IMG/VR virus record: IMGVR_UViG_2627853766_000003
DNA: 64,000 nucleotides
DNA from: a virus
Taxonomy: Duplodnaviria; Caudoviricetes
Strand: one strand, 5' to 3'
Shown piece after piece: positions 6,001-29,931 of the stretch. Position 1 is the first letter of the stretch, and every line of letters begins with the position of its first letter. The notes under the pieces were generated by a model. It did not search any database, was not told the DNA's origin, and saw nothing but the letters and a program-made list of their open reading frames with translations. The position numbers and the translations under genes are program-made.

Positions 6001-9000
6001 GTGACGCTGCCGGATGGTACGCAGACGCAGGTATTAGCGCCAGTCGTTTATCTGGCCCGCGCGGATGCTAGCGATTTAAAACCGACCGGTGCGTTGATTT
6101 CCGGACAGAATATCGATTTGAAGATCAACGGCACCCTGGCAAACGGCGGTACGCTGCAAGCGTCCAACAATATGATCGTTCAGGCCACGGATATCACCAA
6201 TACCGGTAACATCCGTAATACAGGTACCGATGGTACGACCGTGCTGGTCGCACAGAACGATATTTTGAACAATGGCGGCAGCATTTCGGGTCATCGTGTC
6301 GGCATTCTCGCTGGGCGTGATGTCACCTTGGCGACCGATACGGTATCGGCGTCTAGTAGGCAGGGTACGAATATCGGCCTGAGTACTGTCGCCAGCGTCA
6401 CCGCTGATCAACTCTCCATTTCTGCGGGGAGGGATTTGACGGTGCAGGCGGCACAGATCAACACTACCGGCGATGCGCAACTGTCGGCGGGACGCGATTT
6501 GAATCTGACGGCGGTCAATACGCAACGCAGCTATAACGTCACCTACAACGGTGACAATCATCTGTACGAAAACCAGACGCAGGTGAATGGCGCCGCCATC
6601 AATGCTGGTGGCAACCTGACGATGACATCAGGTCGTGACCTGACCACCAGCGCGGCCAACGTCAATGCTGTTGGTCAACTGACGGCAGTGGCTGTACGCG
6701 ATGTTAATCTCGGTACGGCGCAACAAGGTAGCAGTCTCGATCAGGCAATTTACACGACGTCGCATGGCTTCCTGTCGTCGTCCTCCAGCCGTATACAGAG
6801 CAACGCCAGCGCCACGAGCGCCATCGGCAGTACCTTGTCGGGCGACAGCGTAAGTGTGCAGGCTGGCCGGGATATCAATGTCGCCGGCAGCAATGTGATC
6901 GGAACAAACGATGTTTCACTGAACGCCGCCAATAACGTCTCTGTCACCGCGTCGCAGAACACCAGCAACAGTAGCTTTAGCCGCGACGAAAAGAAATCCG
7001 GTTTCACAGGCGGTTTCTCTGCCGGCGTCGCTAGCATCGGCTATGGCAAATCCAGTGCCGACAGTCAAAGTAGTATGGAGACGGTGACCCAGCAGAGTTC
7101 GAGCATTGCCTCGATCAATGGCAATACACAGATTCAGGCTGGGAATAAACTGAATGTGGTGGCTTCGGATATCAGCGCCGGCCAGAACCTGACGCTGATC
7201 GGTAAAAGCGTCGATCTCAGCGCAGCACAAAACACGAGCGTGGAACATGGTGCACAACAATCCAGCTCTAGTGGTTTCTCGGTGGGGGTGACGTACAACC
7301 CTGCCGGAGCGTTTAAGAGCGCCTATCAGCAAAGCGCCAGCAGCAACCCTAGTACCAGCTTACTGGGTAAAGCCACCAAGATGGGCGATGCGATTGGAGA
7401 CGGTACGCTGGCAGCTATTACCCCCATCGTGGTGCAAGCCGGTTCGCGTAGCGCTAGCGGCACTCAGGATCTTGCGACCAGCAATGCCCAGGTCAGCTCA
7501 CTTACGGCGGGTAATAATTTGACGGTGCTGGCCACAGGCGGCAGCATCACCAGCCAGGGCGCAAGTATGAGCGCAGGCGGTGACGCGTTGCTGCTTGCCC
7601 AAAACAACATTAATCTGGATGTGGCGCACAGCTACCAGACCCAGGGACAAACCAGTGCATCCAAAGGTTGGAGCACGGATAACCGCGGCAGTATGCCGGC
7701 AGGCGCATTTAACAGTAAAGGCAATGGTAACGGCAGCACCGACACCATCAGCGGCACGACCCTCTCGGCTGGCGGTAAGGCTACCCTGGCGACAACCAAT
7801 GGCGATATCACTCTGACGGCCGCCAATCTGGTCGCTAACAACGACTTGAGCATCAATGCTGCCAAGAATCTGACCATCCAAAGCGGACAGAATACGCTCA
7901 CCAACGCCAACCAGAGTAACAGCCAGGCCGTCGGTAAAGTGGTGATTTCCGATACGGAGCGCTTTGCAGGCTATAGCTCAGATAAAAGCCAGGATAACAA
8001 CACCGCCGTCACCCAGGTGGCGTCCAATGTCGGCAGCTTGCAAGGCAATGTCAACCTGACTGCCGGAGGCGCCTACACGCAGACCGCCAGCAACGTGCTG
8101 GCAAAGAACGATATCAACATTATTGGCAAGTCCATCGACATCAACACGGCCAACAACACCGGTAGCAGTGCCCAAAGTAGTTCTGACCTGAAGGTGGGAG
8201 CCTTTGCGACCGTGACTTCGCCGTTGATCGATCTTGGCAACAATATCGAGAATGCGAAGAAATCCGATGGTCGCCTGCAAGCCCTGCAAGGTCTGGCGGC
8301 GACATCGAATGCGTATCAAGTTGCTAGTGCCGCCAGTGCTGTCGCGGGTGGGGTGGGAAGCGGCGAGTTGCTGAAAGCCGAAGTCGGCGTCGGTTTCACG
8401 ACGGCCAATAGCCAGGATCGCAGCAATTACAGTCAGGCCCAGGGCAGCACGATTCAAGGCGGTAGGAATGTCAATCTCACCAGTACTGCGGGCGATATTC
8501 ACGCCACTGGCGCGACGATCGCCGCCGGCAATACGCCAGGCAGCACCTTGACGCTCGATTCAGCCCAGAACATCCTGCTCGATGCCGGACAAAGTACAGT
8601 GACCAGCAGCGGCAGCAACCACAGTGCCGGAGTACAAGTCGGCGTGGGGTATGAGGTAGGCGCGCAAACCGGAGCGTATGCCTTTGCCAGCGCCAACGTA
8701 GGCAATGGGAACTACAACAATACCGCAACGACCAATAGCAACACGCATTTAAGCGGCGACACCGTCACTTTGAAATCCAAGGGCGACACGACTTTACAAG
8801 GTGCCGATGTCAACGCCAATACGATTAATGCGGATGTTGCCGGCAAGTTGGCGATCACATCGGTGCAAGACACCAGCGTCCAGCATAATGAACAAAGCAA
8901 TATCGGTGGGCGGGTGCAGGTCTCCTTTGGCACGGCGTGGGAGGCATCGGGCAGCTTGTCGCAATCGAACGCCAATGGCAGTAGTCAGACTGTTAATCAA

Positions 9001-11064
9001 CAGTCGGGGCTGTTTGCCGGTAACGGTGGCTATCACGTCACCGCCGATTCGGTTGCCCTGAAGGGCGGTGCAATTACCAGCACCAATGCGGCCAATTCCG
9101 ATCTGACAGCCAATTCTCTCACGGTGCAAAACATCACCAACCAGATGAATTACTCGGCAAACACGGCGAGTGTGTCAGGTAGCTATGGCGGTAGCCTGAA
9201 TCAAGGTGCTGCTCCGGATCAAACGAGTACTGGCACCCCCAGTCCCAACGTTATCCCTGGGGTGGTGGTGCAGAACAAGGGTAACGCCACATCCACTACG
9301 TATGGCACGCTCACTGATGGCAACATCAATGTGGGCGGCCAGCACATGACTAGTGCCGCCGGGTTGGGAGCACACACCGATCTGGCGACGGCCAATGGTG
9401 CCATCGCGGCTTTGCCCAATCTGCAGAATGTGATGAGCAATCAACAGGCGATAGCAACTGCGGCCAACACGGTGATCAGCACTAGCCTGCAAATAGCTGG
9501 CGATAGACGCCAGGGAGCAGGACAGCAAGTCGCTCAAGCACAAGGGGACGTCAACACCGCCAATGCAAATATAGCGCAGGCACAAGCGGTTCTTGACAAT
9601 CCGAGCAGCACGGACGCACAAAAGGCGCAAGCTCAGCAAAACCTCGATCTTGCCACGCAAAATCTGAATAGCGCCCAGCAAGCTGTCAGCAACGCAGAAA
9701 CGACGGCCAAAAACTGGGGACCGACAGGCGATTACACGCGTGCCTTGAACATTGTGACCGGATTATTGACCGGCGGTCTTGCCGGTCAGAGTGTGGGGCA
9801 GCTTGCCGCCAATGCCAGCGCTCCGTCTGCGGCGCAGGCCATCGGCGACTATTTCGCGCAACCGGGTAACGCCAATCAGACGGAGCAAGTATTGACGCAT
9901 GCCGTGCTTGGTGCTGTTCTCGCTGTGGCGAATGGTAGCAGTGCAGCAGTTGGCGCTAGTGCGGGTGCATCGGGTGAGTTGGCAGCGCAAGTGTTGACTC
10001 GTGAGCTATATCCGAATGCGTATGATGCCAATGGTAATTTCCACCCCGAGCAGCTCAGTGCTGATCAGCTCAATAACGTGATTGCCTTGTCGACTGCAGT
10101 GGGCGCACTAGTGGGAGGGGCAACAGGTGGCTCGTTGATGGATGCCAGCGTAGGTGGGAATATTGCGGCGAATGCGGCGACGAACAATCACTTACTGCAT
10201 CAAACTCAATATGATTTGGCTAAAACATATGCAAGCTTAGTTGCTAAGAAACTCGGTATCTCCGTCGATGCGGCGGAAGGTCGAATTGTGGCTGAAGAAC
10301 TGCGTAACTCAGATGCACAGACTGCCCAGGCTGAAGGAGGTATTCACGACTACCAAGTGAGGTCAATTCTCGGATGTCAACTGTTGAACTGCAGTGGGTC
10401 AACAACCGATTTTAATTACCTGAATCATGGATTCAATTCGCAATACGTCGCGGCCAATCAGCAGGCATATACTCTTGGAATTTGGCAATCTACTACGGGG
10501 CAGACTTACGATCAACTTGTTACGAGTAATATCCAAAAAGACCCTGTAGGTGCCACGTTAGCTGGCGCTGGTATGCTTGGACTGGGACTTGCAACGGCGG
10601 GAGGAATTCCTGCATTGGGCGGTATGGTGACAGGTGGGGTACTTGGTGGGACTGCAAATGCATCTATGCAAGCATTATTTAATAAAGGTCAAGTTAATTT
10701 TCTCGACGTGGGTATGGGTACTTTGACCGGTGCGCTCACATTCGGAACGGGGTTAGTACCAGCCCTTCTAGTTAACACCGGAGGGGCCTTAGCTGGGTCC
10801 GGAATTAAAGGAGAAAATCCAAATCTCAGCATGGGTGGGGCGGCATTAGGGACAACCATCGGTTACGGCTTAGGCACTCTAGCAGAAAAGGGTTTGAATA
10901 CTGTATTAAATCCTTGGTATCGTCAACAATGGCAAGATTTAGGGTATGGAGTATCTACTGCCATTCCGAAAAATTCTATTCCATCAGTATCGGGAAGTGC
11001 TGTAGGTGCAGTACTACAGGAGCTAACAGGTAATACAACAAATACTGTTGTAAACAAAAAATAA
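1..11064 (+). CDS. cdiA: CdiA-like filamentous haemagglutinin / TpsA exoprotein with C-terminal toxin domain
   Basis: ESPR-type N-terminus (MNKLSYRVIFNKNRGMLMAVAE), TPS motifs (NPNL, IIANPNGI), long FHA-type beta-helix repeats, RLGDGFYEEKLV block, pre-toxin region ending in VENN-like AATNN, then a variable low-GC C-terminus. CdiB/TpsB is not in the window. Confidence 0.92.
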   Translation: MNKLSYRVIFNKNRGMLMAVAEDVASQGKSAGSQSGSAATTTSPLMRLAYLGVAVAALFGGVSVVSAQIVADPNAGSRRPTVTSTANGIPLVNIVAPSASGLSHNQYTTFGVGSQGAILNNSSTVVSTQQAGFVAGNPNLGNGPAKIILNEVTGTGISQLNGYLEVAGQRAQVIIANPNGILVGGTNGAGFINTSRAVLTTGTPVFGGDGSLNAFRVTGGNIQIGSAGLNASNVDQLDLISRSVAVNGQLWANNLNAITGTNQVNYGDLGVTVIQGDNNKPTVSIDLAALGSMYANKIKLVGTEAGVGVASYGTMAAQSGDLNIDSSGKVTLGGSTTATGLLRVVGNDGVTNTGTTYGQQAVSIYSAGQIANSGTVASQSDVTLFGGSVASTGAVGAGVNANGQVTQGGNVNLVASGAIVATGQNTAGSNIAANGASIDLSHSQTNAAGSIGLATHSGDVNLAGSTLQATGPMNINAAGAVINDQGKINVSQLTSTSASLSNVGGTITQSGSGDASITTTGAINNNGGNLTTNAQNLTIQSASLNNAGGQINHAGSGTATIQSGAISNAQGVIGTNGQLALTAASLNNQAGRLTSGGAANVHVTGDVTNAQGVMQSGGALSLTGNNIDNSAGSITSLNADGLSISAAGQLTNGAAGAIGGNGDASISAGSLVNSGKITASNNLTSTVAGSDDNSNGLLAAGKNLNASTTSLKNVNGTIDATNVALSIAQLDNSSGKITADQLAITSTNLTNEHGQISQFGSNATTIAVAGTLDNSNGGALQTNGTDLKITAGAIQNNSGTIAHAGTGTLTINDAGALSDQNGVIGTNGQLALTANSLNNQAGSITAKNQANVHVTNDIANAQGTIQSGGALAVSGANIDNTAGNITSLNADGLTLNAAGQLTNANAGVIGGNGDVAVTAANAINSGKITATHNLTTTIANSFDNSGGRLAAGNNLTASAVSLKNANGAVDAANVALTAQQLDNSSGKITADQLSIASSNLTNEHGQIIQYGSNPTQIGVTGTLDNSNGGLIQTNSADLSLTPQVLNNNGGTIALAGSGTLTVNVGNGAGTLSNAGGTLGSNGQAAITAASIANQGGALFAQQQLGVTATQGGVDNSAGGYIGGSSLNLNAANGQINNTNGKIEGTQQAVNVSAQSLNNAGGTVQSIGAAPLNVSIAQAISNTVANGIGGFIGGSGTVNLNAGSFDNSGGTVYSKDNLALQSNSTLTNTNGVIQGAANVSTSAAGALSNANGRIEANGSTATLTVSGNGIDNSTGRIANTGTGLTQINGGSQVTNHQGTIGGNGEVDINASNLDNSQQGQIIAAGNLMLNTGGIVNNNAGALYSAQNLQLNQGGAALTNVGGTVGAAGNINLNVASIDNIFGLIGSTTGAGGDIGIATGSFTNAAGTVASGHDLSLTAPTIVGNGVVVAGHDGTINLQGDYTNTAGNVLTANNNLTLNTTGNLTNTGTLTAVNGLTLNAANVDNQSTGLINASATTIQAGNAITNTGRIYGDDIALGAQTLTNDVDPVSGQAGAIAARNSINIGAVTTVNRENAIIQSLGDMTFARSLDANHLAVGTSDSITNSSATIDAGGNLVFQTAQLNNTNAHFTTAQQVDPTQTTQVTQYAEWAAPTTWYNPNQVTWGDSGNGGIVLIIPDGNRFEQFYKKDYTQTVSNTVVTSSAPGTISSGNGMVLSGNITNDKSTIIAGGTLSGTTGNINNIGATGTTDTVDHMTAGQNYYHWVSGHPHQNYYTYDNNGAAYDVTLPSTPLALQVWSVQQNTAPNSSTNPALGQGVGSSAVPSVGGLSLAANQGTQTVSGANGHGIAAVGGIIGSGTGIGGSGHTVATTGGTAGGGTSTAGSNQTIGSAGNPLPNLALPNNHLFTIQTSPGQQYLVATDPVFTNYGSFLSSNYMLNLLGINPATTEKRLGDGFYEEKLVTDQVMQLTGKRFLGGYASNEDEFKALMDSGVASAKQFNMVPGMALSDAQMAALTSDIVWMVNQTVTLPDGTQTQVLAPVVYLARADASDLKPTGALISGQNIDLKINGTLANGGTLQASNNMIVQATDITNTGNIRNTGTDGTTVLVAQNDILNNGGSISGHRVGILAGRDVTLATDTVSASSRQGTNIGLSTVASVTADQLSISAGRDLTVQAAQINTTGDAQLSAGRDLNLTAVNTQRSYNVTYNGDNHLYENQTQVNGAAINAGGNLTMTSGRDLTTSAANVNAVGQLTAVAVRDVNLGTAQQGSSLDQAIYTTSHGFLSSSSSRIQSNASATSAIGSTLSGDSVSVQAGRDINVAGSNVIGTNDVSLNAANNVSVTASQNTSNSSFSRDEKKSGFTGGFSAGVASIGYGKSSADSQSSMETVTQQSSSIASINGNTQIQAGNKLNVVASDISAGQNLTLIGKSVDLSAAQNTSVEHGAQQSSSSGFSVGVTYNPAGAFKSAYQQSASSNPSTSLLGKATKMGDAIGDGTLAAITPIVVQAGSRSASGTQDLATSNAQVSSLTAGNNLTVLATGGSITSQGASMSAGGDALLLAQNNINLDVAHSYQTQGQTSASKGWSTDNRGSMPAGAFNSKGNGNGSTDTISGTTLSAGGKATLATTNGDITLTAANLVANNDLSINAAKNLTIQSGQNTLTNANQSNSQAVGKVVISDTERFAGYSSDKSQDNNTAVTQVASNVGSLQGNVNLTAGGAYTQTASNVLAKNDINIIGKSIDINTANNTGSSAQSSSDLKVGAFATVTSPLIDLGNNIENAKKSDGRLQALQGLAATSNAYQVASAASAVAGGVGSGELLKAEVGVGFTTANSQDRSNYSQAQGSTIQGGRNVNLTSTAGDIHATGATIAAGNTPGSTLTLDSAQNILLDAGQSTVTSSGSNHSAGVQVGVGYEVGAQTGAYAFASANVGNGNYNNTATTNSNTHLSGDTVTLKSKGDTTLQGADVNANTINADVAGKLAITSVQDTSVQHNEQSNIGGRVQVSFGTAWEASGSLSQSNANGSSQTVNQQSGLFAGNGGYHVTADSVALKGGAITSTNAANSDLTANSLTVQNITNQMNYSANTASVSGSYGGSLNQGAAPDQTSTGTPSPNVIPGVVVQNKGNATSTTYGTLTDGNINVGGQHMTSAAGLGAHTDLATANGAIAALPNLQNVMSNQQAIATAANTVISTSLQIAGDRRQGAGQQVAQAQGDVNTANANIAQAQAVLDNPSSTDAQKAQAQQNLDLATQNLNSAQQAVSNAETTAKNWGPTGDYTRALNIVTGLLTGGLAGQSVGQLAANASAPSAAQAIGDYFAQPGNANQTEQVLTHAVLGAVLAVANGSSAAVGASAGASGELAAQVLTRELYPNAYDANGNFHPEQLSADQLNNVIALSTAVGALVGGATGGSLMDASVGGNIAANAATNNHLLHQTQYDLAKTYASLVAKKLGISVDAAEGRIVAEELRNSDAQTAQAEGGIHDYQVRSILGCQLLNCSGSTTDFNYLNHGFNSQYVAANQQAYTLGIWQSTTGQTYDQLVTSNIQKDPVGATLAGAGMLGLGLATAGGIPALGGMVTGGVLGGTANASMQALFNKGQVNFLDVGMGTLTGALTFGTGLVPALLVNTGGALAGSGIKGENPNLSMGGAALGTTIGYGLGTLAEKGLNTVLNPWYRQQWQDLGYGVSTAIPKNSIPSVSGSAVGAVLQELTGNTTNTVVNKK
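1711..3120 (+). repeat. Internal tandem duplication in cdiA, period 753 nt (251 aa)
   Basis: GVIGTNGQLALTA..LNNQAG starts at 1711 and again at 2464; ITSLNADGL, QLDNSSGKITADQL, NLTNEHGQI and GTLDNSNGG recur at the same offset. Confidence 0.85.
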
Positions 11065-11081: not shown

Positions 11082-11330
11082 ATGTCGCAATTAAAACGAA
11101 ATATTGGATCTTTTTTATATATATTTTTGCTATTTTTCACAGTGTATTTTTTAGCGTTTGTATTTATTTTATTGTTGTACATACCATTTCTTCGTTGGAT
11201 AAAAACTGATGCTGTGTATGCGTTACCGGGCATATCTGAGCTATATCTATACGGAAAGGCTGTAGGTGTGCTGACATTAATATCTTCTATCGGATTGTGG
11301 TTCTATCAAAAAATATTATCGCGTCGTTAA
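11082..11330 (+). CDS. cdiI: Putative CdiI immunity protein, two transmembrane helices
   Basis: Immediately downstream of cdiA, very low GC, 82 aa with two hydrophobic segments, as expected for immunity to a membrane-acting CT. Confidence 0.7.
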   Translation: MSQLKRNIGSFLYIFLLFFTVYFLAFVFILLLYIPFLRWIKTDAVYALPGISELYLYGKAVGVLTLISSIGLWFYQKILSRR

Positions 11331-11845: not shown

Positions 11846-12160
11846 GTGGTAACGACCAAGGCTACTGTAGACACATCAACCGGCGACAAGCTCTCTGAAC
11901 AGATCACGTATGATCCAAATCATCTGCTTGACGCTTTGATTGAAAAATTAAAACTGAAAAACGATGCCGCGCTATCACGCGCGCTCGAAGTCGCGCCGCC
12001 GGTCATAAGCAAAATCCGGCATCATCGTTTGCCGGTTGGTGCGTCGTTGCTGATTCGCATGTACGAAGTCACAGACCTAACTATCAGTGAGCTACGCGAA
12101 TTGATGGGCGACCGTCGCAGGAAATTCCGCATCAGCGACAAGCAGTTCAAGCCTCGCTGA
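11846..12160 (+). CDS. Small HTH DNA-binding protein (Oxalobacteraceae-type)
   Basis: DPNHLLDALIEKLKLKNDAALSRALEVAPPVISKIRHHRLPVGASLLIRM; RBS AAGGA upstream of GTG. Family recognised from memory. Confidence 0.8.
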   Translation: MVTTKATVDTSTGDKLSEQITYDPNHLLDALIEKLKLKNDAALSRALEVAPPVISKIRHHRLPVGASLLIRMYEVTDLTISELRELMGDRRRKFRISDKQFKPR

Positions 12161-13210: not shown

Positions 13211-13374
13211 CTGCGGCACATTGAGTTTTCAATTTTCCGCATAATTTAGGCGAAAGCACGGCACTAGCTTACGTGAAGCTGCATCCTCGGATGGACCTGC
13301 TTGCCTGAAATTCGTTCACTGCGCACAATAGCCGCAGGAGCGACACCAAAGCCACCCTTGAGGTGGTTTTTTTT
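13211..13374 (+). ncRNA. Candidate structured small RNA
   Basis: CTGCGGC (13211-17) pairs with GCCGCAG (13331-37); AATTTAGGC..AGCA pairs with TGCT.GCCTGAAATT; two apical hairpins; promoter upstream and intrinsic terminator downstream. Confidence 0.55.
13348..13374 (+). terminator. Rho-independent terminator
   Basis: GCCACC-cttga-GGTGGT followed by a T run. Confidence 0.8.
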
Positions 13375-13665: not shown

Positions 13666-16035
13666 TCAGAGATTTACGCCGATCCCACCAGACATGCCCC
13701 CAGTAGCGATGTGAGCAATGCGCCGGTCACTCAAGTCTTGACCCACAGTGTCATTGCTACCTGCCACCTGTACCACAAGCGGCTTTGATGATCCAAACCT
13801 TTGCACAGATTGCACTGTCGGCGCATCTGGAATAGCCGGAACCGCGCTTATCGAAGTCACGTTCGGCATGGTCGGAATAATAGATGCCGACTGCACGGAC
13901 GACGGTATCTGCGATGCAGGCGCGATATTGATGCCTCCAACAGCCGAAGACGCTACAGCCGTCGCGCCCCCGCCTGCCAGCGCAGCCAACTTGTCCTTGT
14001 CAGCGGCCTGAATCGTACTGACCTTGCCTACCTTAAACCCCTCCATTTTACCCATGCCGTCGAGCAGCATATTCATTTCATCGCTCGACAGGTCTCCTAT
14101 TTTCTTGCCGCGTAAATCTAATCCCTTTGCATCAGCTGTTTTGTAAATTCTGTCAGCATACGCCTTAACATCTGCCTTGCCGGAGTAGTCGGAAATCGCA
14201 TACTTCGGCAGCATTTCCTCAATGGTTTTTTTCCCATGAGAAGACTTCAAAAGCTGTGCTTGAGCATCGCGACCAGATTCTGCTGAATCGAATACGGCAT
14301 TGCCCCATTGGTCAAGGTCGACAATTCCAGTGCCATAACGTTTCTGAGCCGCCGCGAGCGCGGCCTCCTTCGTCCGCTTGGTCTTGACAGTCTTGTCTGC
14401 GCTACCGGCATATTCAAATTTCAAATTTCCGGGATTATTGTTCCGCCATGCAGCCGTGCCGCCATCACGCTGCTCAACAGAGCCATCCTGATGTTCAAAA
14501 ATTCGAGTCATCCCAACCGCTTTAACCAGCCGCACAATGGGACTCGCCATTTTCTCAGCGCGCCCTTTCACGTAACCGCCAGCCGCACTAGCACCAGTCT
14601 TAACAGCGTCACCGACTACAGCAGCACCTTTCTTTACATCCTCGACTACCGGAGCGACGGCAGCCTTGGCTTTGTCAATGATAGGTGCCACTACAGCTTT
14701 TGTCTTTTCAACAGTGACAGCGGCCACTTCTTTAACCTTAGCTACTGTCGCATTGACATCAATACCTAGTTTGCTTTTCAAGAAGGCCTTTGCCCCATTA
14801 ATGACGGAATCCCAGGCTGCACCAACCGTCTTCGAGATATCGGATAGTTTGTCGGTTGCCGCCTTCCAGGAATCCTTGATGAACGCAACGGATGTGTCCC
14901 AAGCACCAGTGATCTGCGCGCCAATCTTTTCCCAGTCGAGGGTAGAAAGCCATGCGCCGACCAGCTCACCAACCTTGTCACCGACCATGCCACCAATGAC
15001 AGTACCTATAGGCCCACCGAGCAATGTACCGATACCGCCGCCGATAAGTGCGCCAACGCCGGAGCCTACGCCTGTAAAGCGACCTTTGCGATTTTCCTCC
15101 GGTGTTTTATCTGGATCGTCAGGACCAAATGCGCTGGTCGCCGCAGAGATGCCGGCGAATGCCGCTCCGATAAGCGGGATGCGACGGAATAATCCCTTCC
15201 CTAATCCGCCCATCAGACGACCGCCCCCCCTGAGCAGACCACCAAGCAGGCCGTCCCCACCTTTAAGCAGACCTCCGAGCGCGCCAAGACCAGGAATTTT
15301 AGTAAAAAGCCCACCGAGCATCGATAGGATACCGCCAGATTTTTCTCCAGCGCTATCCTTATGCTTATTCTCGCCTGCACGCCTGGCTTCGGCTAAATGG
15401 TAGGCAGAGTCTTCCTGACGCAAACCCCGTAGCTCATTCCATAAGCGCTTGTACCAGACAACCTTTTTGTCGTCAGCGCCTTTGCCGAATAACTTCGCCC
15501 AGCCACGACCAAGCGGTGCAACAATGGAGTGAAGTTCTTTCGCGGCTGCGATAGCAGGGGCAACATCTGGAGCCTTTACGACTGCCGCACCTACCACGCC
15601 ATGTACCGCCCCCATCGCTTTTTTTAGTGGATTGCGAATATCGAGTTCTTCATCGTCTTCTTGTGGCTCAGACGCCACCTTCTTTTTATTTGGACTGTTC
15701 TCTTTTTTCGTCTTTTCTTCTGGCTTACTTACCTTGGCGTTGGCCGGCAGGAATCGCCCATTCGCGCCGCGCTTAGCGGGCGTGGCTGGCGTAACCCTCA
15801 ACCTGGTCGCTCGTTCTGCGTTGACTGTAGCTGCTTTGGATTTTGGCGTGGCTATAACATTCTTAACTGCTACGTCATTTTTTTTCGCGGTTATTCTGGT
15901 CTGCACAGCCGCAGTAGACAACGATTCACGCAGGCTATGAACTTCGTTCCTGATCTCTGTCCAGAGTTTGAGCGCTCGTGCCCACTGCACCGGCTCTCCC
16001 TGGAGAAATCCCTTATCGTCGCTTTTCAATGCCAT
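13666..16035 (-). CDS. Tape-measure-like protein with C-terminal muralytic-type domain
   Basis: Gly/Leu-rich hydrophobic core (GGGIGTLLGGPIGTVIGGMVG), Trp-periodic helical repeats (W..S....K..W), and the AWRNNNPGNLK motif seen in virion-associated cell-wall hydrolase domains. Confidence 0.7.
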   Translation of the reverse strand: MALKSDDKGFLQGEPVQWARALKLWTEIRNEVHSLRESLSTAAVQTRITAKKNDVAVKNVIATPKSKAATVNAERATRLRVTPATPAKRGANGRFLPANAKVSKPEEKTKKENSPNKKKVASEPQEDDEELDIRNPLKKAMGAVHGVVGAAVVKAPDVAPAIAAAKELHSIVAPLGRGWAKLFGKGADDKKVVWYKRLWNELRGLRQEDSAYHLAEARRAGENKHKDSAGEKSGGILSMLGGLFTKIPGLGALGGLLKGGDGLLGGLLRGGGRLMGGLGKGLFRRIPLIGAAFAGISAATSAFGPDDPDKTPEENRKGRFTGVGSGVGALIGGGIGTLLGGPIGTVIGGMVGDKVGELVGAWLSTLDWEKIGAQITGAWDTSVAFIKDSWKAATDKLSDISKTVGAAWDSVINGAKAFLKSKLGIDVNATVAKVKEVAAVTVEKTKAVVAPIIDKAKAAVAPVVEDVKKGAAVVGDAVKTGASAAGGYVKGRAEKMASPIVRLVKAVGMTRIFEHQDGSVEQRDGGTAAWRNNNPGNLKFEYAGSADKTVKTKRTKEAALAAAQKRYGTGIVDLDQWGNAVFDSAESGRDAQAQLLKSSHGKKTIEEMLPKYAISDYSGKADVKAYADRIYKTADAKGLDLRGKKIGDLSSDEMNMLLDGMGKMEGFKVGKVSTIQAADKDKLAALAGGGATAVASSAVGGINIAPASQIPSSVQSASIIPTMPNVTSISAVPAIPDAPTVQSVQRFGSSKPLVVQVAGSNDTVGQDLSDRRIAHIATGGMSGGIGVNL

Positions 16036-16063
16036 GTTATATCACCGGTTGAAAGATTTGTGG

Positions 16064-16804
16064 CTAGGCAGACGCCATCGTGACACCCTGTAGACTAGTC
16101 TCGTGCGCTGCTGCTCGCGCCAGCATAAGGTCGGCACGACGGTTCAGAAATTTTCTTGTCGTCATCAGCGTAGCTTGAACATCATCGATTGCCCGCTGGA
16201 GGTTAGCGCCTCCCAGGATATCGTTCTGGAAATGCTTGTTTTGCCGGCACGACGTGTCGAACGCTTCAACCACGCGCTTCGCCTGAGCGAGCAAAGCGGT
16301 TAAATGTCCCTCCATTGGGGTCATATCGCTGGCATTTTTCAGGAGGATCGAGGCGAGGGACTGGCTTTGCTGCAAGATTTGCGCACGCACCGTGCGGATT
16401 ATCGCCATCTGTTCGGCAATCTTCGGGTCACGCTCCGGCTCGTCGGACAAACCCATAAGGTAGTCGGAACTGACGCCGTATGCCAGCGCGGCCCGGACAA
16501 TTGCCTTCCTGGAAATTGGGCTGTAGCCGCTCTCCATTTTAGAAAGCGCTGATGAGTTTTGATAGCCCAGCAGTTTGGCTGCTGCTATTTGCTCCAGATT
16601 GTTCAATCTGCGGGCGTTAATGAGGCGTATGCGAAGTGTTTCATCGAGCGGTCGACCAACGATAAACTCTCGCGCCTTCTGTCCCGAAAAATCCGCGATG
16701 GCTTTTGAAGTCAGCCATCTGCGGCAAGATTCAGTGTCTTGAATTTCTTCAATATCGTGGGCGTCCTCGATATCTATCTCGGAATCGGCGTCAAGATTGT
16801 TCAT
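16064..16804 (-). CDS. XRE-family HTH regulator
   Basis: RLINARRLNNLEQIAAAKLLGYQNSSALSKMESG...YGVSSDYLMGLSD. Confidence 0.85.
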   Translation of the reverse strand: MNNLDADSEIDIEDAHDIEEIQDTESCRRWLTSKAIADFSGQKAREFIVGRPLDETLRIRLINARRLNNLEQIAAAKLLGYQNSSALSKMESGYSPISRKAIVRAALAYGVSSDYLMGLSDEPERDPKIAEQMAIIRTVRAQILQQSQSLASILLKNASDMTPMEGHLTALLAQAKRVVEAFDTSCRQNKHFQNDILGGANLQRAIDDVQATLMTTRKFLNRRADLMLARAAAHETSLQGVTMASA

Positions 16805-16876
16805 TTATTTGGTCCTGTTGTGGAAATTAATTGTCGGTCAACCACCGCCAGGTGCTGCCGCTGGCGGCTCTGTGGC

Positions 16877-17668
16877 TTAGGTCGGCGTCATGAAGCGGCG
16901 CATATCGTCTTTGTCGTGCGCAGTCAGAGAGCAGAGGGTCATTGGGATGAGGATTTCCGTGTAGAAGCCGTTCGACTCTATTGGAGAAGACAGCGGCTCT
17001 CCAATCGACTCAATGACCATGGGCGCATACGTGCGGCGCTTGTAGGTGAAGCCGATCATCTGCGGAGCCTTAGAAGGAAGTAGGGCCGTGACGTAATCGG
17101 AGATACCGCTCTTTTTTGACATCACCCTCGCTACAAGACTGTCCTTGCTCAACTGCTGCGGAAGCGCCCAAAACCACAACTGCTGAAGCGGCGCTTCAAC
17201 TTCTGATTGCGCATCGAAATGCGCTCGGAAAAGCATAGTTAGGGTGATTTTCAGGGGGGGCATTCCGCTGAAAATCTGAGTGGAGTTCATCTTCGTAATG
17301 CCAGTGCGGCCCTGAACATCCTGAAGCGTTTTCGTTACGACGCCTGGATCGGAGGGGGATTGCGAAGACGAAGCAGTCTTACCGCCGCTCGGGGCTGCAC
17401 GAACATCATTCATAGCCCCGAGTAGCGCTCCCGATTGAAGCATCGCGACCAGTGCTGGAGCTTTTGTGTCAGGGCTACTATTCTCAAATGGCGACTGCCA
17501 ATTCAGCGTTGCGTCTAGATTCACCTCTGTCAGCGGTGCTTGCACTTCAATCATCTCTTGACCATCTCGAAGCCCATCTTTGTTCACTGGGTAGAAGCTG
17601 GCTATCAGTAATGGGTTCAAGCCCATCCAGTCGCTGCTCAAAATCGTGTTGTCGCTGGTGCTCTTCAT
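16877..17668 (-). CDS. Baseplate/tail-tube initiator-like protein (phage P1 PmgG / T4 gp48-like)
   Basis: Motifs LNWQSPFE, NSTQIFSGMPP.KITL...F...D...EV and SPIESNGFY match my recollection of the P1-type protein (NWEAPF, NS..VWEGG.PP, APRDSNGHF); not verified by search. Confidence 0.55.
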   Translation of the reverse strand: MKSTSDNTILSSDWMGLNPLLIASFYPVNKDGLRDGQEMIEVQAPLTEVNLDATLNWQSPFENSSPDTKAPALVAMLQSGALLGAMNDVRAAPSGGKTASSSQSPSDPGVVTKTLQDVQGRTGITKMNSTQIFSGMPPLKITLTMLFRAHFDAQSEVEAPLQQLWFWALPQQLSKDSLVARVMSKKSGISDYVTALLPSKAPQMIGFTYKRRTYAPMVIESIGEPLSSPIESNGFYTEILIPMTLCSLTAHDKDDMRRFMTPT

Positions 17669-17688
17669 AAGTGCGGCTCCAGTTAGAA

Positions 17689-18408
17689 TTATTTCAGGCG
17701 CTTGTTTTGCTCAGTCAATTGAGATTGACGAACTAACAGCGTAGGCAATTCGACTCCCTGAAGTCTCTCCATCCGAAACCGAGGAAAATCTTCTGTAAAC
17801 GACTGGAGCAACCGCTGCTTTGTTTCGAGTCCCTTGATTAGAAAGCGCCACGATTCAATTTGCTCAAAAGTTGGCTCAATCTTTATATCCAGCATTTGCT
17901 GTTTGCTCAGGCCCGCCGCTCGGTATTTTCCCTCGGCTTGATGCCGCGTTGTCTCGGCCGTCAAGATGCTATGGCGAAGCCGCTTAAGTTCTTTACCAAT
18001 TTCAAATTGACTGTCTCCGGCTGCGAGTAGCGCGGGTGTTACCTGGTTGCGGCGCTGCTTTGTGTAAGCATCCCATTGCTTCAAATCTGTTTTTGCCTGA
18101 GCGAGTTCACGGGACACGGCAGTATTAAAGTTGCGCAGAGTCGTTTCAATCGGCGTCGCATCAGCTTGCTCCGCCTGTACCGCGATTTGCAAAAAATGAA
18201 CTCGACCAACTGTTTGAAAAAGCTCAGTGAAAGATTGTTCAAGCTGCGAGAGCGCTCGGCTGACGACAGGGTCTTTGCCATTCGCGTTCGCTTCCGCCGT
18301 TTCCATGTCGAAAGTGAACTCTGGATCGGTTCCCGACTGTCCGGCGAGAATTGGCAAGAACACTGAAATAAATTCGGTTGTTGAGGGGAGTGCTTCAGAT
18401 TGTTTCAT
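17689..18408 (-). CDS. Hypothetical coiled-coil protein
   Basis: 239-aa ORF with RBS AGGAGG, first gene of the leftward operon containing the tail-like genes. Confidence 0.7.
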   Translation of the reverse strand: MKQSEALPSTTEFISVFLPILAGQSGTDPEFTFDMETAEANANGKDPVVSRALSQLEQSFTELFQTVGRVHFLQIAVQAEQADATPIETTLRNFNTAVSRELAQAKTDLKQWDAYTKQRRNQVTPALLAAGDSQFEIGKELKRLRHSILTAETTRHQAEGKYRAAGLSKQQMLDIKIEPTFEQIESWRFLIKGLETKQRLLQSFTEDFPRFRMERLQGVELPTLLVRQSQLTEQNKRLK

Positions 18409-19275
18409 GGGACCTCCTGTGGTGATGAGAGCAAAGTCTGTCTCACCGATGAAGCTGGCTAGCTCTAGGTTTTACGGAAATCGCTATTTTTAAGCTGGTT
18501 CGGCGTGAAGTCCAAGAAAACCAAAGCAAATGCGGCTGAACATCGGAAAATTCGCTAACCAGGTGAGTCCCGCCACGGGGCAACCTAGGATGCTGCGATA
18601 GGTAGCGTGCTGCCGGCCAAGCGACTTGATTCCGAGACAAATAGACCGGAAGCGCCCTGCATCACTGTTAAGGTGTTTTGCTGACGTCCTGCAAGTCTCT
18701 CGCGCACGCATAAGCATAAGAAAATTCAGGCCTACGCCGTAGCGTCCTGTCTCTAATTATGGAATTTCACGCAAGAAATAACCCGTCAGAAGTTGATTCC
18801 TTCATCAGGCATTTACAACGAAGATTTAAGGGCACCGGTTGAATTTGATTCTACCGGCGTCTCTTTTGGCACCCGAGGGGCGAGAAAGGTGCTCTAGATG
18901 GGACAACGAGTGTGACTTCAAGTCTTGATGGCTTGACGTTGGACGATCCCGCCTCTACTTCCAATCCCATACAGAGCACACGCAACAAATATAGCCACTC
19001 CGCAAACCCGCGTCAATGAAGGGCGCTGTAGATGCGCATCGGCGGCTTGTTTGACACTAAGTTTTGCGCTTCGATTTCACCATAAGTTTTGATAAGAGTT
19101 GCGATGCTTGCTCCTGTTTCAACTGTCGTGGGGCGTGCAACCGTTAGATGGCACTATGTTCGTGATTGTCCGAATATGGCTAAATATACCCATATGGAGC
19201 TATTTTATTAAAATATTGCACCATATGTTATTTTCCGTTAGCATCAATGGCATTGACACATTAATAGGAGAGCGC

Positions 19276-19515
19276 GTGACGCCGGATATCTTTAAGGGAA
19301 TGTTGGATGAACTAGGTTGGAAGTCTTCGGATTTTTGTCGCCAGGCTGGCGTTGGACGTAATACACCCAGCCGATGGTTAAATGGAGTTGTTCCTATACC
19401 CGCATGGGCCGGACGATTTCTTGAGCTAACGATTGAAATCAAACGGCTACATGAAAAGTACGTGGTTCCGCCAAAAATTTACGGCTTGGCTGAAACTGAC
19501 ACGGAAGAACTCTAG
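19276..19515 (+). CDS. Small HTH (Cro/XRE-like) regulator
   Basis: GTG at 19276 after AGGAG; LGWKSSDFCRQAGVGRNTPSRWLNG..PIP.W. Confidence 0.7.
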   Translation: MTPDIFKGMLDELGWKSSDFCRQAGVGRNTPSRWLNGVVPIPAWAGRFLELTIEIKRLHEKYVVPPKIYGLAETDTEEL

Positions 19516-19575
19516 AAAATTCTAGCAATTCAGACCAAAAGTCTGCACGACACATAGCACATAAGGAGCAATAAA

Positions 19576-20127
19576 TTGAGTTCACCAAAGCTGACGAATG
19601 AAAACAAATCCAGTCTTGCCGCTGGAGCACAGGTCGCAAAACGTATGCTGGCCGGCATTGAAGACTTAGTGCTTCACGCCAAAAAAACTCACTCGGACTT
19701 TGACATCCAGGCTGTCGTCGACCTTATCGACCACAGCTTGAATTGTCAGGGCGATATGCGGCGTGGCCTTATATTCGGACTGGCTGACTTCGTGGCGAGT
19801 TCAGTCGAGGGATGCGCCCCGGGAGCGAGCACTTGGGACCCGACTGAGCGGTTTTCTGCCATGCGCGACACTGGACCTGATGTAGTTGGGGGGCAGTTTG
19901 CTCCGGGTACAACAATGAACGCAACGTCCCTCATCAACAAAAAGAAACTGCTGACAATGATTCCGCTGGCCGACCGCACAATTTTTGACATGGAAAAACG
20001 CGGAGATTTCCCAACGCGCATCACCTTGAATAGTCGGAATGTGGCGTGGGATTTAGCCGAAGTGGAAGCTTGGATAGGTGCAAAAAAAACATCTAGCGAA
20101 CGAGCGCGACGCCCATTTGCAGCGTAA
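19576..20127 (+). CDS. alpA: AlpA-family regulator with N-terminal extension
   Basis: C-terminal ~70 aa: LINKKKLLTMIPLADRTIFDMEKRGDFPTRITLNSRNVAWDLAEVEAWI. Confidence 0.8.
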   Translation: MSSPKLTNENKSSLAAGAQVAKRMLAGIEDLVLHAKKTHSDFDIQAVVDLIDHSLNCQGDMRRGLIFGLADFVASSVEGCAPGASTWDPTERFSAMRDTGPDVVGGQFAPGTTMNATSLINKKKLLTMIPLADRTIFDMEKRGDFPTRITLNSRNVAWDLAEVEAWIGAKKTSSERARRPFAA

Positions 20128-20711: not shown

Positions 20712-23700
20712 CTATCCATGCTGGTTCACCGCCGCAATTTGCGTCGGGCGGACCAAGTCCAAATATCCGGACTGCCCGATCGAGGCCAGGAAACTCACGA
20801 GTTCCTCCACACGTTTGACTGTTGCGGTTGTGCCACGTGATTGGCCAGCCGTTAGGAGCGCTCGAATTGATTGATCTTGACCTACGTAGACCCACGGTTC
20901 AACGTTTTGATTCGTGAGCAACTTCTCTAGGACCTCGACAGCGCGATCCACATGTGTTTCACAAACCTTGGCAAGCCACGCCACAACGTTGTATGCCGGC
21001 TCCGGGACGAACCCTGAGCGCAACATCCTGAGTAGTCGGTCAAAGAGCCAAGTGAGGTCGATTTGATGGTTCTCGCACCACAGCCCGATTGAACCGAGTT
21101 CTCCCTCAAAGTGGGCACGCTCGGTTGCAACCTCGCTAGCGGCAAGCCGACTGTCCCAAAAGGCCAGCACCCGCGTCCGCTGCAAATCCGGGAAGTCAGT
21201 GGCAGGTTTCTGCAAGTTCCTACCTAGCGCCCACATGACATGTTGGCGAACCTTCCCTGGTGCCTTGATCAGGAAGGAGTCAAGCAACCCGCCAGATTGA
21301 AGATCGAGATATTCGTTCAGATAGAGAATAACCAGGTACTCGCCAAGGCGATTCTGTCGGTACCCTTTGCGATCGTTGGGCGTGTCAGCAATGAGTCCTA
21401 TCTCATGCACATAGTCGCTGCGCAGATCGTCAAGCTTTGAACCAAGTGGCCCACCGTCATGAAGAAGGTGGCTAAGCCATGCAGCGCGCCGCAACTGCTG
21501 ATCGGATCGTGCAAACATTGGCACCATGTTTTCGGTGAGCCAGCTCTCTCCAAAATAAAACAGCCACCCTAGATAGCGCCCCATGATCGACCGCGGGATG
21601 CGACCGTTTGGTGAGCAATCCCGAAGTTCAGTCTCTAATGCAGCCATGACCGGCGGCGTCAGTGCGAGAGCTTCGCGCGGCGTGCTCGCATGCGTCGATC
21701 CCGCTTCCTTGCTCAGCCAAAAGATCAACAGTATGCAAAGTTCAATGGCAGCCCCTCGCAAAGTTGTTTCCGAAGCGAAGTACGGGTCCCTCTCAAATCG
21801 CTCTTCAAAGTCGTCAACCTCGGGCGCCTGAGGTGCGTGACGATGAAGTGTTAAGAGCAGGTCCTGAACTGTTTCCTTGTGTTCAAAACCTATCCCAGCG
21901 GCGCCACGCCGCAAGCCTGCCTTCAGGAGCTCGCCCCCGGCTGCGCAGGCCCAATGCCATGTCGGATCGTCGCCTTCGGCAATCGAGGCCGAAGCAATTG
22001 GCTCATTCAGGCGGGAAAATGTTAGACCGAGCAACTGTAGAACCGAGGTCCATGGGAAATCGCGCTGATTTCTTGTCGCATCGCTCAACCCATCAAGCAA
22101 TCGATGAACGTAGACGGCAGGAAGGTCGGCAAACTGCATGGCCTCTTGCGCATACTTCACCGGGTTCTGGGTCGCGACCCTCATTAGCTCCTGAGCAAGA
22201 GCTGTTATAGTCTGACGCCGCGGCTCATGGCGGGGCTGCCAGTCACGCAGGAATGCGACGATCTCTGCGATGGGCTGCGACGCGAAATCTGCTGTTGCCA
22301 GCGGGCTTTCTTCCTGTCCAGTCCAATATGCGTTCCGCCAAGCCTCAGGATCGCCAAACTCTGCGACGATTGCATCGACCGAGCGCTGTCGATCTGTCGG
22401 CAGTACAGCCCGCCAATACCAAAGTGCATCGCGCAACACGTGGGCCGAGAAGATACGCACCTCTTCAGCATTCGGTGGCTGCTTCGCGCGCTCTTCAAAG
22501 CGTGCCTTCCAGCCGTCCATATAGCGCCCTGAAATAGCATCTGCTTGCCCGAGGACTGTCTGCTGATCCGTGGGTGTCAGCGATGGAAACCAAGCAAGCG
22601 CAAGGAGCGCGTACTCGTGCGTGCACCATGGCGCTTCGAGAAGCTCGGCATCCAAGAGCAATGACCTTGCCCGCTCGGACGCAGCGGCCGGGTGCTGTGA
22701 AAGCAAGAACATTTCCAAGCGGCGAAAGAGCTTTGGCGTATGCTTTCCAAGCACTTCCAAGACAGCCGGCATCTGCAGTGCGTCGCCGTGGATGATCTGC
22801 TCGGCAGAATATCGCACTTGGCACTTCAACGCGTCGTAGATGCTGTAGTTAGCGTTCGAGTCATCCGTAATCAGTCCTTGATCGTATGACGTAGGATCGA
22901 ACGCCGGATCATCGCCAGCCTTGCGACTGACCACCGCTTGGTTCAAGAGATCGCTGAACAGTTCTAGGGCTGCCACGCCAAATGCCGCCGTCAGCACGGG
23001 CGTCAACTGCGGCAAGCTGTGCTCATACATGTGCTGTGCATAGAGGCTTGTGGTGTTGCCGTCGTCGCCGAACACCTGCAGGAGGCGGGCTGCCACCGCT
23101 AGCGCCGCAGCGCGCTGCCCCCCGTTTGCGAGTCGCTTTACCAATTGCTCAGCCGGCTGAAGCGTCATGGAGTTGGCATCGCGGTCAAGCCATCCGACCG
23201 CGACCTCTGCAAGAGACGCGGCTTCGGCGGCCGGAAAGGCGGCGATGATCTCCATACCGCTGCGCCTGACATCGGGGTGTTTTGAGGGTGCAACATTTCT
23301 GACAGCCATCGCAACCTGGTCTCTGACAGTTGCGTCCTCAGACTCCGCCATGCGCCGCAGATAGCTTCCTGCTGGCCATTCTCCAAACCGTCCGACGTTG
23401 ACGCCTGCGCCCGTGAGCTCTGGCAGCGGCGGCCCGATGAGTTTCTGCTGGGCCAGAAAAGGCAACCAATCTGCGGTTTGCAGTCTGTGGAAGAAATGCC
23501 ACTGCAGCGGCATTGCGCTGGGCACTTCTGCTCCGAATAATTTGGCCGCTTGACTTTTGTCGGACATCGCAGCAAGTTCCTCGACCCGTCGCATGAGCAC
23601 GCTGTAGCGCCTTTGTAGTGCTACAGCGACGGCGCGGATCACCATCTCGAATGGTTGCTGGGACTTCTTCCGAAAATCTTCGTCGACCAACAATGACTCG

Positions 23701-25189: not shown

Positions 25190-25410
25190 AACGACTTCAC
25201 TTTCTGCCCGGCAGCCGGGAATTTTTGTTTGATTTGATGCATGGCGGCACGCACTGCGTCGAACGCTTGCGCACGCCTCGATCCTTTGAGCGATGACTTG
25301 GGGATGACAAACTCTCCACAGTCGGTGTTCCAATACTCGGCCGATAAGTCGGAGTCACGCTGGCGCTGATAGTCACCATTAGCATTGCGGGAGTGTAGCG
25401 ATTCGCTCAT
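25186..25410 (-). CDS. Hypothetical protein
   Basis: Translationally coupled by 4-nt overlaps on both sides. Confidence 0.6.
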   Translation of the reverse strand: MSESLHSRNANGDYQRQRDSDLSAEYWNTDCGEFVIPKSSLKGSRRAQAFDAVRAAMHQIKQKFPAAGQKVKSL

Positions 25411-26141
25411 ATCGATCTACTGGCTACGTAGTTGGCAACCTTCTTTGCTAGTTCTGCACGCTGCTGGCGAGCAATCTCAGCATCAGTCGGTATTGCGGCC
25501 CGATTGGCTTGGCGTTGAGCATCCAGATCAGCCAGCAGTTTTTTAACCTTCCCTAGTTGCTCGCGTACGCTAGGATCATCTCCTTGCACTTTCTGCTCAG
25601 GTGGGGCCAGAAGCGCGGCGACGACAGAAGCAGGCAACCGGCTGGTGCGCTCGGCCGCTTGTAACGCCAGGACTTTGCGGCTCTTATCATGCCCCTCAGA
25701 GACGATCCAAGCTGGGGCGCGCATCTGGAACCTGGCGACGTCAATCAAGCGTTGATACGCCTCAATGAATGCCTTGCGAGCGCTGATTGCGCCGCTGCTG
25801 TCAAGCACCGGCCTGGCAATGGCGAAGGCTTCTGCCATTTCCTGCGTCCAGACAATCGTTTCATTCTCATCGGTGCTCAATAAGGACAGCGCCCAAGCTT
25901 CTTCCGCAGCCGGACGGCCATCGAGCAGCTTGCAGCGCTTGACGATACCAGCAGGCTTCGGCTCGAACGTGCCTTCGTCGTTGATGTAGGACGCGAATCC
26001 AGCAGCCACAACGCGTAACGGGTAGGGCGAGAGGGATTTCCACCACGTTGCTAGCATCGACGTCTCAGGTAACGGCTTTGCGTATTGCGCCATGCAGTCC
26101 TTGAGTAGCTCAAAAAACTGAGTCTTCTCGTCATCAAGCAT
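25407..26141 (-). CDS. Replication accessory / helicase-loader-like phage protein
   Basis: P.PA.I....DGRPAAEEAWA...DE.ETIVWT.EMAEAF..AR...AR.AF.EAY.RL pattern typical of genes that follow phage replication initiators. Confidence 0.65.
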   Translation of the reverse strand: MLDDEKTQFFELLKDCMAQYAKPLPETSMLATWWKSLSPYPLRVVAAGFASYINDEGTFEPKPAGIVKRCKLLDGRPAAEEAWALSLLSTDENETIVWTQEMAEAFAIARPVLDSSGAISARKAFIEAYQRLIDVARFQMRAPAWIVSEGHDKSRKVLALQAAERTSRLPASVVAALLAPPEQKVQGDDPSVREQLGKVKKLLADLDAQRQANRAAIPTDAEIARQQRAELAKKVANYVASRSI

Positions 26142-29679: not shown

Positions 29680-29690
29680 GAAACCCTCGG

Positions 29691-29870: not shown

Positions 29871-29931
29871 AACTCGGATTGAGCATCTGAGCGGCTCTCG
29901 GTGGTGTTGGTGTAAATGAGGTGTAGTGCGG

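Follow-up and report, generated by a model that had tools for sequence, protein, structure and literature searches.

Why should an integrated genetic element keep the innermost parts of a phage tail apart from the sheath, tube, and head genes that normally surround them? The question is raised by a 64,000-nucleotide stretch of Caudoviricetes DNA (IMG/VR record IMGVR_UViG_2627853766_000003; the whole stretch is called the window here), in which a four-gene operon on the minus strand (13666-18408) encodes a protein resembling phage tape measures and a protein resembling PmgG of phage P1, a tube initiator of the T4 gp48 type. At the center of the baseplate, the tape measure and the gp48-type ring are in contact with one another and with the hub; they start the tube and later enter the target cell. 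The reading favored here, which has about an even chance of being correct, is that the operon is a satellite-type module that would build chimeric tails together with a P1-like helper phage.

The operon encodes a predicted tube initiator and a tape-measure-like protein

All four open reading frames (ORFs) of the operon are intact with ATG start codons, a purine run resembling a Shine-Dalgarno sequence precedes each start, and the inter-gene gaps are 20, 72, and 28 nt, in agreement with the leftward run of four intact frames described in an earlier note made from the DNA alone. The first gene specifies a 239-aa protein of no known family (17689-18408) and is followed by genes for the 263-aa PmgG-like protein (16877-17668), a 246-aa helix-turn-helix (HTH) protein of the XRE family with an uncharacterized C-terminal half (XRE246; 16064-16804), and the 789-aa tape-measure-like protein (13666-16035). 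The PmgG and tape measure genes are 841 bp apart. Genes for sheath, tube, capsid, and terminase, which the note had reported as absent, gave no match among the scanned ORFs of the surrounding island, ORFs shorter than ~100 aa being mostly unscanned. The usual phage neighborhood of PmgG, in which the gene lies between a sheath and gp21-like pair and a BplB-like gene, is not present around the copy in the window. The 239-aa and 246-aa genes were considered as candidates for the gp21-like and BplB-like flanking genes and were rejected, as no similarity beyond noise was detected at E ≤ 10.

The 263-aa protein matches the family phrog_1114, annotated as PmgG-like, over residues 10-260 (E = 1.2e-52), and a profile of 43 homologs matched the solved PmgG chain of P1 (9ay5_G) at E = 1.9e-6 in three colinear stretches. 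When the AlphaFold2 model of the protein (pLDDT 76) was compared with known structures using Foldseek, ranks 1 and 2 were the P1 baseplate chains 9vzk_2 and 9ay5_G with TM-scores by target of 0.73-0.79, followed by the tube initiators of cyanophage A-1(L), the antifeeding prophage (AFP), and extracellular contractile injection systems (eCIS) or other injection systems, and then by the T4 structure 5iv5. The resemblance to P1 PmgG and T4 gp48 that the note had suggested is borne out by these matches, and the fold found in the predicted model is that of a tail protein. The 263-aa protein is 57-58% identical to the PmgG copies of P1-like prophages in the same genus, retains the invariant PmgG positions, and is the product of the single PmgG copy in the genome. 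Two reports describe P1 PmgG as an essential, virion-borne, gp48-like hexamer with a position between tube and gp6 hub, and identify Sit as the P1 tape measure (PMC9024508; bioRxiv 10.1101/2025.07.21.665459). Judged by profile and predicted fold, the 263-aa protein is a member of the PmgG/gp48 tube-initiator family, for which a role as a hexameric ring in the virion is predicted by homology.

The 789-aa protein matches phrog_4067 (E = 1.8e-65) and phrog_6922 (E = 3.3e-37), and weakly matches the tape measure family phrog_167 (E = 3.9e-5); the sole PDB match at E ≤ 1 was a designed protein. Its relatives are proteins of 782-787 aa in P1-like prophages of the same genus, with ~40% identity over residues 1-504 and 38-41% over residues 705-784. 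The equal length and the match at both ends support the identification as a tape measure that the note had proposed. The polypeptide comprises an N-terminal region, a glycine-zipper region (approximately residues 233-355), a stretch rich in alanine and valine, a central domain of predicted wall-degrading type, and a conserved C-terminus. A search of 301 genomes of the family matched 13 at E ≤ 1e-5, strongly only in three genomes of the same genus (G009, G016, and G017). The G016 gene adjoins tube-like and portal genes in a prophage with sheath, capsid-type, DarB-like, and baseplate genes which is therefore a P1-like myophage. The suggestion that a helper would be P1-like also fits, as complete P1-like prophages in this genus are among the nearest relatives of both tail proteins.

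The central domain (residues 495-705; 13921-14553, minus strand) is widespread, with 703 representatives at E ≤ 1e-3, and carries no Pfam name. The RNNNPGN motif that the note had singled out as muralytic occupies residues 531-537 (nt 14425-14445) within it, and Arg-531, Asn-534, and Gly-536 are at least 90% conserved among 29 sequences of the domain. [quoted passage not shown] In view of this lysozyme-fold-like match and these neighbors a muralytic role is a plausible prediction, and the motif stands as part of a conserved domain. The corresponding position in phage copies gives weak SLT-type matches below the Pfam cutoffs and in island relatives is occupied by SLT or GH19 domains; an SLT domain was not found in the 789-aa protein of the window. 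The central domain also forms the N-terminus of many proteins that are not tape measures.

The two other products of the operon are less readily placed. The 246-aa protein matches HTH_3 (E = 5e-6, above the Pfam cutoff), BetR (E = 8e-5), and phrog_7396 (E = 5e-14), and NCBIfam and PADLOC gave nothing for the four operon proteins beyond HTH matches. The 239-aa protein, whose gene has the sequence AGGAGG 6 nt before the ATG, gave no match in Pfam, PHROGs, NCBIfam, or PADLOC, and Atlas feature and structure searches produced no lead (scores ≤ 0.77, TM-score < 0.5). Its earlier description as unknown therefore holds in the sense that no known family matches, with the correction that it is a near-orphan for which one homolog (50% identity) exists among 5.8 billion sequences. 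A first metagenome scan was empty and a second gave this one locus, L067:9602-11246 on a metagenome contig, where the gene lies between two pieces of a split XRE246-like gene with the N-terminal piece on the opposite strand. Alignment of the 239-aa family with hhalign to the 225/260-aa proteins at the same position in Cupriavidus elements described below gave a probability of 87% (E = 4e-6) over 105 columns with thin profiles.

The tail gene pair recurs without a sheath gene in integrative elements

A census of 185,579 species genomes (genome_contigs) yielded 25 PmgG loci, and the best 80 of 195 loci were taken from IMG/VR (viral_contigs). Among the 25 loci, 17 have a sheath gene directly upstream of PmgG, although the sheath is cut by the contig end in L056, two are too short to judge (L060 and L062), and six lack a sheath gene across an upstream span of at least 9.9 kb (L045, L047, L052, L053, L058, and L064). 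These six island-type loci include a tape measure gene beside PmgG in four cases, a hub-like gene in three, an XRE246-like gene (27-39% identity) in five, and an integrase gene in five. The best 80 IMG/VR loci comprised 69 with a sheath, six cut close to PmgG, and five of island type (L109, L132, L136, L138, and L139), several of which look like mutual kin; sheath-less L109 was classed as island-type on its integrase, regulator, and hub matches. Hub-like genes occur in eight of the 11 island-type relatives.

The two groups of loci differ in several other respects, in counts that overstate independence because the loci are kin. A major capsid gene is present at 70 of 85 sheath-positive loci compared with none of 20 sheath-negative loci, and XRE246-like genes, which were counted with several XRE queries and a 40% coverage filter, at one of 85 and 11 of 20 loci, respectively. 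The tape measure and PmgG genes are 3.0-9.0 kb apart at the 20 sheath-positive loci that have a tape measure within the flank; the distance is 37-1941 bp in eight island-type loci and 3.2 kb in the cut locus L118.

Elements carrying a PmgG gene with no sheath gene nearby come from Cupriavidus, Lysobacter, Azonexus, and others, and in most of them a tape measure gene, a hub gene, or both accompany it. The occurrence of the pair in small integrative elements, for which the earlier note had recommended a search, is thereby established, and three of the elements are bounded by attachment (att) repeats and measure 15.3-17.2 kb. The two Cupriavidus elements (L052 and L058) have perfect repeats of 50 and 51 bp at tRNA-Met and are 17.2 kb long, and the Lysobacter element (L047) has a 21-bp repeat at tRNA-Pro and a length of 15.3 kb. 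The Cupriavidus elements encode an integrase, a primase/helicase or DnaB, the 225/260-aa protein, PmgG, a small ORF, a 304-aa XRE protein, a 132/134-aa protein, the tape measure, and cargo, such that the order of the module is that of the window. Backbone proteins of the related elements also resemble those of the island in the window, with identities of 50% for the integrase (L047), 56% for the AlpA-domain protein (L053), and 55% for the second HTH regulator, XRE138 (L045).

In P1-like prophages and in Xanthomonas phage Rb1 the corresponding order is tape measure, head genes, sheath, gp21-like gene, PmgG, BplB-like gene, and lysis genes. Because of this layout, one deletion cannot yield the order in the window. 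Nor is the locus the one-off deletion remnant that the note had entertained: ten of the 105 loci (six of 25 in genome_contigs and four of 80 in viral_contigs) have PmgG and no sheath gene in the DNA available, eight of these ten with the tape measure 37-1941 bp away, and L109 is an eleventh sheath-less locus. L047 shares 82% identity with Rb1 in PmgG, 65% in the tape measure, and 51% in the hub.

Two side observations concern the phage copies. A genome of the same genus contains two P1-like late regions (G006:C1 at ~210 kb and ~460 kb; L012 and L013) in which PmgG is near-identical. In the deposited record of Rb1 (PQ569993.1; L001) the 547-aa "tail connector protein" shares 55% identity with a protein matching the sheath family phrog_1036, the 359-aa "transcriptional regulator MvaT" corresponds to the hub-like protein, and the 948-aa "hypothetical protein" corresponds to the tape measure; on these sequence matches the annotation looks wrong for the three genes.

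Ancestry of the module and selection on its genes

The seven island copies lie dispersed among the phage copies in a 32-row PmgG tree, with at least four label changes forced by well-supported branches, and the island label is no more clustered than shuffled labels. The island copies each sit near phages of related hosts, that of the window falling in a group with two Burkholderiales phages and the same-genus prophages. The ratio dN/dS between the two Cupriavidus elements, a check that the earlier note had proposed, ranged from 0.24 to 0.62 across five module genes: 0.24 for the XRE gene, 0.33 for PmgG, 0.35 for the 132-aa gene, 0.58 for the upstream gene, and 0.62 for the tape measure gene. 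The values were obtained by the NG86 method at high GC content, and that of the tape measure is inflated by a swapped domain. Thus, the two Cupriavidus island copies of the module have diverged under purifying selection.

A candidate module for chimeric tails

The module would act when a P1-like phage grows in the cell. The island would then supply its own tape measure, with a lysozyme-fold-like domain at the place of the SLT-type matches in the phage copies, and also a hexameric ring of the PmgG/gp48 type to be placed between hub and tube. These parts would assemble with the hub, wedges, tube, and sheath of the helper to give chimeric tails on particles carrying island DNA, and the XRE-type protein of the operon would serve as a regulator belonging to the element. 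We infer helper induction, incorporation into tails, packaging, transfer, and a benefit from the swapped wall-degrading domain. Insertion of parts into helper tails is the likeliest activity of the module because just these parts have been kept, in several lineages and under selection. The outcome may be aid to transfer, harm to the phage, or both.

[quoted passage not shown] As described in the accessible text of a 2026 report, PLEs encode their own tape measure, chaperone, and hub and build chimeric tails with parts of phage ICP1; the same text states that PLE11 additionally blocks the tape measure of the phage, and it mentions tmp genes in other putative satellites (PMC12987554). The island resembles PLE11, PLE1, and PLE4 as a putative integrative satellite that lacks a full tail gene set and carries its own tape measure and an inner baseplate part as strongly diverged copies; PLEs use the tube, sheath, and remaining baseplate of the helper, as the island would. 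It differs in that the helper of PLEs is the lytic phage ICP1 and the presumed helpers here are P1-like temperate myophages, in a backbone that consists of a P4-type integrase, AlpA, and a regulator of XRE246 type, and in its second part, which is a gp48-type tube initiator and not a hub, hub genes being found only in some relatives. No chaperone or Rta-like gene was recognized in the island of the window, the likeness being one of gene content. By analogy, the chimeric-tail idea has a precedent in the PLEs, and the present locus would be a variant with another backbone in which the tube initiator is replaced.

In comparison with P1 itself (PDB 9ay5, 9vzk), the 263-aa protein is of the PmgG family, and the 789-aa protein shows homology to P1-like prophage tape measures and has the same layout, with an internal domain of putative wall-degrading type. 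In contrast to the island, with its two genes close together and none of the others, P1-like phages keep the two genes in separate blocks amid sheath, tube, and head genes; furthermore, the central domain in the window is not SLT and P1 Sit is not matched directly. [quoted passage not shown] Those elements remodel the capsid or packaging through Sid/Psu, small-capsid, or terminase-small-subunit functions or encode whole capsids (capsid-forming PICIs, cf-PICIs), whereas the 34.7-kb island carries tail-core genes, and no Sid, Psu, Delta, or capsid gene was found in it. The EPIPs of Mycolicibacterium are reported to be small satellites with a tape measure gene and tails of altered length (PMC12822802). 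They are actinobacterial, have siphovirus-type helpers, and encode capsid-related and connector proteins with no tube initiator; their relationship to the island is one of concept only. A literature search brought up no publication that deals with satellites of P1-like phages or with satellite-borne genes of the PmgG/gp48 type.

A wider proposal is more tentative and is offered as possible but doubtful, namely that the window contains one member of a family, widespread in Beta- and Gammaproteobacteria, of satellites that integrate at tRNA genes and have P1-like myophages as helpers. The family would be marked by an XRE246-type regulator and a tail-core cassette of tape measure, gp48-type ring, and sometimes a hub, and its members would replace the cell-entering part of the tail and repeatedly swap the tape-measure domain (SLT, GH19, or Enc34-type).

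The island and its surroundings

The operon lies in an island of 34.7 kb between marks derived from tRNA-Leu(CAA), the gene for which is located 10 kb to the right of the window. An 18-bp copy of the 3' end of the tRNA gene at 29854-29871 (plus strand), with a 100% match to window-equivalent positions 73942-73959 inside the tRNA, marks the right end of the island and at the same time the left end of an adjacent podophage. At the other end, outside the window, a 41-bp stretch at window-equivalent -4902 to -4863 comprises the ancestral tRNA flank and the tRNA 3' end, and the integration site is empty in a genome of the same genus (G005). The island is older than the podophage. Features expected of a satellite are present in the form of an integrase with att repeats, its own AlpA-domain protein, two XRE proteins, RepO/DnaD-like and loader proteins, and an incomplete set of virion genes. 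The 423-aa P4-type tyrosine integrase (28459-29730, minus strand) has Arm-DNA-bind_3, Phage_int_M, and Phage_integrase domains. The replication module (25407-27541, minus strand) encodes a 244-aa helicase-loader-like protein, a 323-aa RepO/DnaD-like protein, and a 147-aa winged-helix protein, with matches to phrog_6028, phrog_1701, phrog_277, and HTH_39. The regulators next to the operon, which the note had described as satellite-type, are a 138-aa HTH protein (XRE138) with PHROGs HTH matches and a 183-aa AlpA-domain protein (Phage_AlpA, E = 1.5e-9), encoded divergently from the operon at 19099-20127 (plus strand).

A gap of 690 bp (18409-19098) separates the operon from this pair; it contains, on the minus strand, a single sigma-70-like site (19016 to 18988) and two small ORFs (65 and 75 aa), and is a possible regulatory region or location of a small gene. 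Downstream of the operon, a terminator-like hairpin readable on both strands (13348-13370) was found by a consensus scan only, with a count in the region that is not above shuffled expectation; promoter and terminator scans overall likewise did not exceed that expectation. A search for a P1-type pac site in the form of clusters of GATC-containing hexamers proved uninformative, as such clusters are common everywhere. A 6-kb region gave no match to phage records by blastn or to plasmid records by megablast.

The cargo includes a 1149-aa protein (20712-24161, minus strand) with PADLOC similarity to the C-terminal part of the defense protein Dsr1 (PDLC04166, E = 5.9e-15, residues 616-899). Pfam, PHROGs, and NCBIfam gave no match to this protein and no SIR2 domain was detected in it; the sequence may be that of a defense gene with a new N-terminal effector. 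The island also carries a CDI (contact-dependent inhibition) locus with cdiB (ShlB/POTRA domains; window-equivalent -3018 to -1198, L017:8982-10802) and a gene for a 3687-aa CdiA protein with ESPR, TPS, haemagglutinin-repeat, and PT-VENN segments and a C-terminal toxin region (window 1-11064). An 82-aa ORF occupies the position of an immunity gene after CdiA (window 11082-11330), just beyond which GC content falls to 36-48%. A gene for a 104-aa HTH protein at 11846-12160 (plus strand) has several copies in the genome; one relative is inside the P1-like prophage of G016, and relatives with ~72-82% DNA identity occur in 19 of 19 other genomes of the genus that were searched.

The podophage is a 44-kb temperate phage inserted in tRNA-Leu with an 18-bp core, extending from 29854 to window-equivalent 73959. 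It has an integrase gene (72791-73879), T7-type tail tubular proteins A and B, internal virion proteins, and a 2003-aa protein (61582-67593), which agrees with its previous designation as a podovirus, and is a separate, later insertion into the tRNA site of the island. It was considered as the user of the tail genes and was rejected because it brings att repeats, an integrase, and T7-type genes for tail and core of its own. Beside the podophage integrase gene lies one for a 388-aa multi-pass membrane protein, which is perhaps a polymerase of the O-antigen type. Elsewhere in the genome, at G000:C1 ~3,151,000-3,169,000, are P1-like prophage remnants with a baseplate gene 88% identical to that of G016 in two pieces and a 515-aa gene that is 96% identical.

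Points against the chimeric-tail reading and alternative explanations

Several results weigh against a module for chimeric tails. Neither a tape-measure chaperone gene nor a hub gene was recognized in the island of the window. Comparison of 18381-19120 disclosed no late-promoter or operator motif upstream of the operon that is common to P1-like prophages, the sole match being 26 bp at the start of the XRE138 gene. P1 Sit itself showed no similarity to the 789-aa protein, as tblastn against 50,697 phage records at E 1e-5 returned one unrelated record. The island-type loci that were counted are mutual kin, and an island-type copy of the module was found in none of 19 genomes of the genus nor in the 13 genomes with a tape-measure match. 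The metagenome locus L067 has no PmgG or tape measure gene, and as it holds the 239-aa gene and a split XRE246-like gene without tail genes, part of the operon may be regulatory baggage and the 239-aa and XRE genes may form a unit of their own. With 34.7 kb including cdiBA, the island exceeds the ~10-18 kb typical of satellites and is larger than known satellites and the 15-17-kb relatives; its size and its CDI locus mean that it is not a compact satellite. No internal att copy that would separate the CDI part was found, and a left att copy for a smaller element, sought at 11-13.7 kb, gave only 10-bp matches at chance level. Finally, the genome contains no intact P1-like prophage and no relative of the sheath, capsid, or portal of the G016 type, and therefore a helper would come from outside.

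This last result bears on an unlikely alternative, that the operon is an anti-phage device whose tape measure and PmgG spoil tail assembly of an infecting P1-like phage as dominant-negative or mismatched parts with no packaging of the island. PICIs, P4-like satellites, and prophages commonly interfere with tail assembly by means of Tai systems (PMC11364771), and PLE11 is reported to block phage tail assembly by way of Rta (PMC12987554). Other cargo for defense or competition is present in the Dsr1-like protein and the CDI locus, the island has no resident helper, and identity to local phage proteins is only 40-58%. However, the tape measure has kept its length and both ends, and PmgG its invariant positions, as a working part would need, although recruitment would equally be required of a poison. 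None of the known Tai and Rta proteins is a copy of a structural protein, PADLOC gave no match to the module, and the related small elements carry an integrase, att sites, and a replicon in the manner of mobile satellites.

It is improbable that the two tail genes are inert leftovers with no present function, captured from or left by a P1-like prophage through recombination. The genome does hold other P1-like debris (the 88% baseplate gene in two pieces, C1 ~3.15 Mb), searches of other genomes of the genus did not reveal the module, and the 239-aa gene is nearly an orphan. Yet each of the four intact ORFs has an ATG start and a ribosome-binding site, and the frames are full-length despite identities of 40-58%, a level low enough that separation from the local phage copies must be old. 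Moreover, the gene order cannot result from one deletion, and both cassette and order recur in distant bacteria with dN/dS values of 0.24-0.62. Very improbable is a task in another machine, either as a wall-degrading, membrane-inserting protein with a partner for lysis or release or in a tailocin-like particle with genes elsewhere: the central domain is similar to the catalytic domain of an endolysin and occurs N-terminally in proteins other than tape measures, and PmgG lies just upstream of lysis genes in phages Rb1 and ABMM1, but the tube-initiator fold is known only from contractile tails and injection systems, the protein ends are those of phage tape measures, and queries from the G016 prophage found no sheath or tube relative in the genome, other contractile systems not having been searched for.

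Implications

To our knowledge, satellites were thought until 2025-26 to tamper only with capsids and packaging. Chimeric tails were then demonstrated for the PLEs, in the one system of Vibrio and ICP1. The locus and its relatives suggest that the same tail strategy as in the PLEs evolved on a different backbone. It would target temperate P1-like myophages, which are important as transducing phages and phage-plasmids, and would replace another part, the tube initiator. If this is true, an XRE246-like regulator together with PmgG and a tape measure, in the absence of a sheath gene, would be a marker set for finding such elements, the elements would be natural experiments on the tail-core contacts that must co-vary, and chimeric tails would provide a route that explains how islands with CDI and defense genes move from strain to strain. 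If the more tentative proposal of a satellite family also is true, swapping of the tape-measure domain may let element DNA enter cells that exclude or resist the tape measure of the helper.

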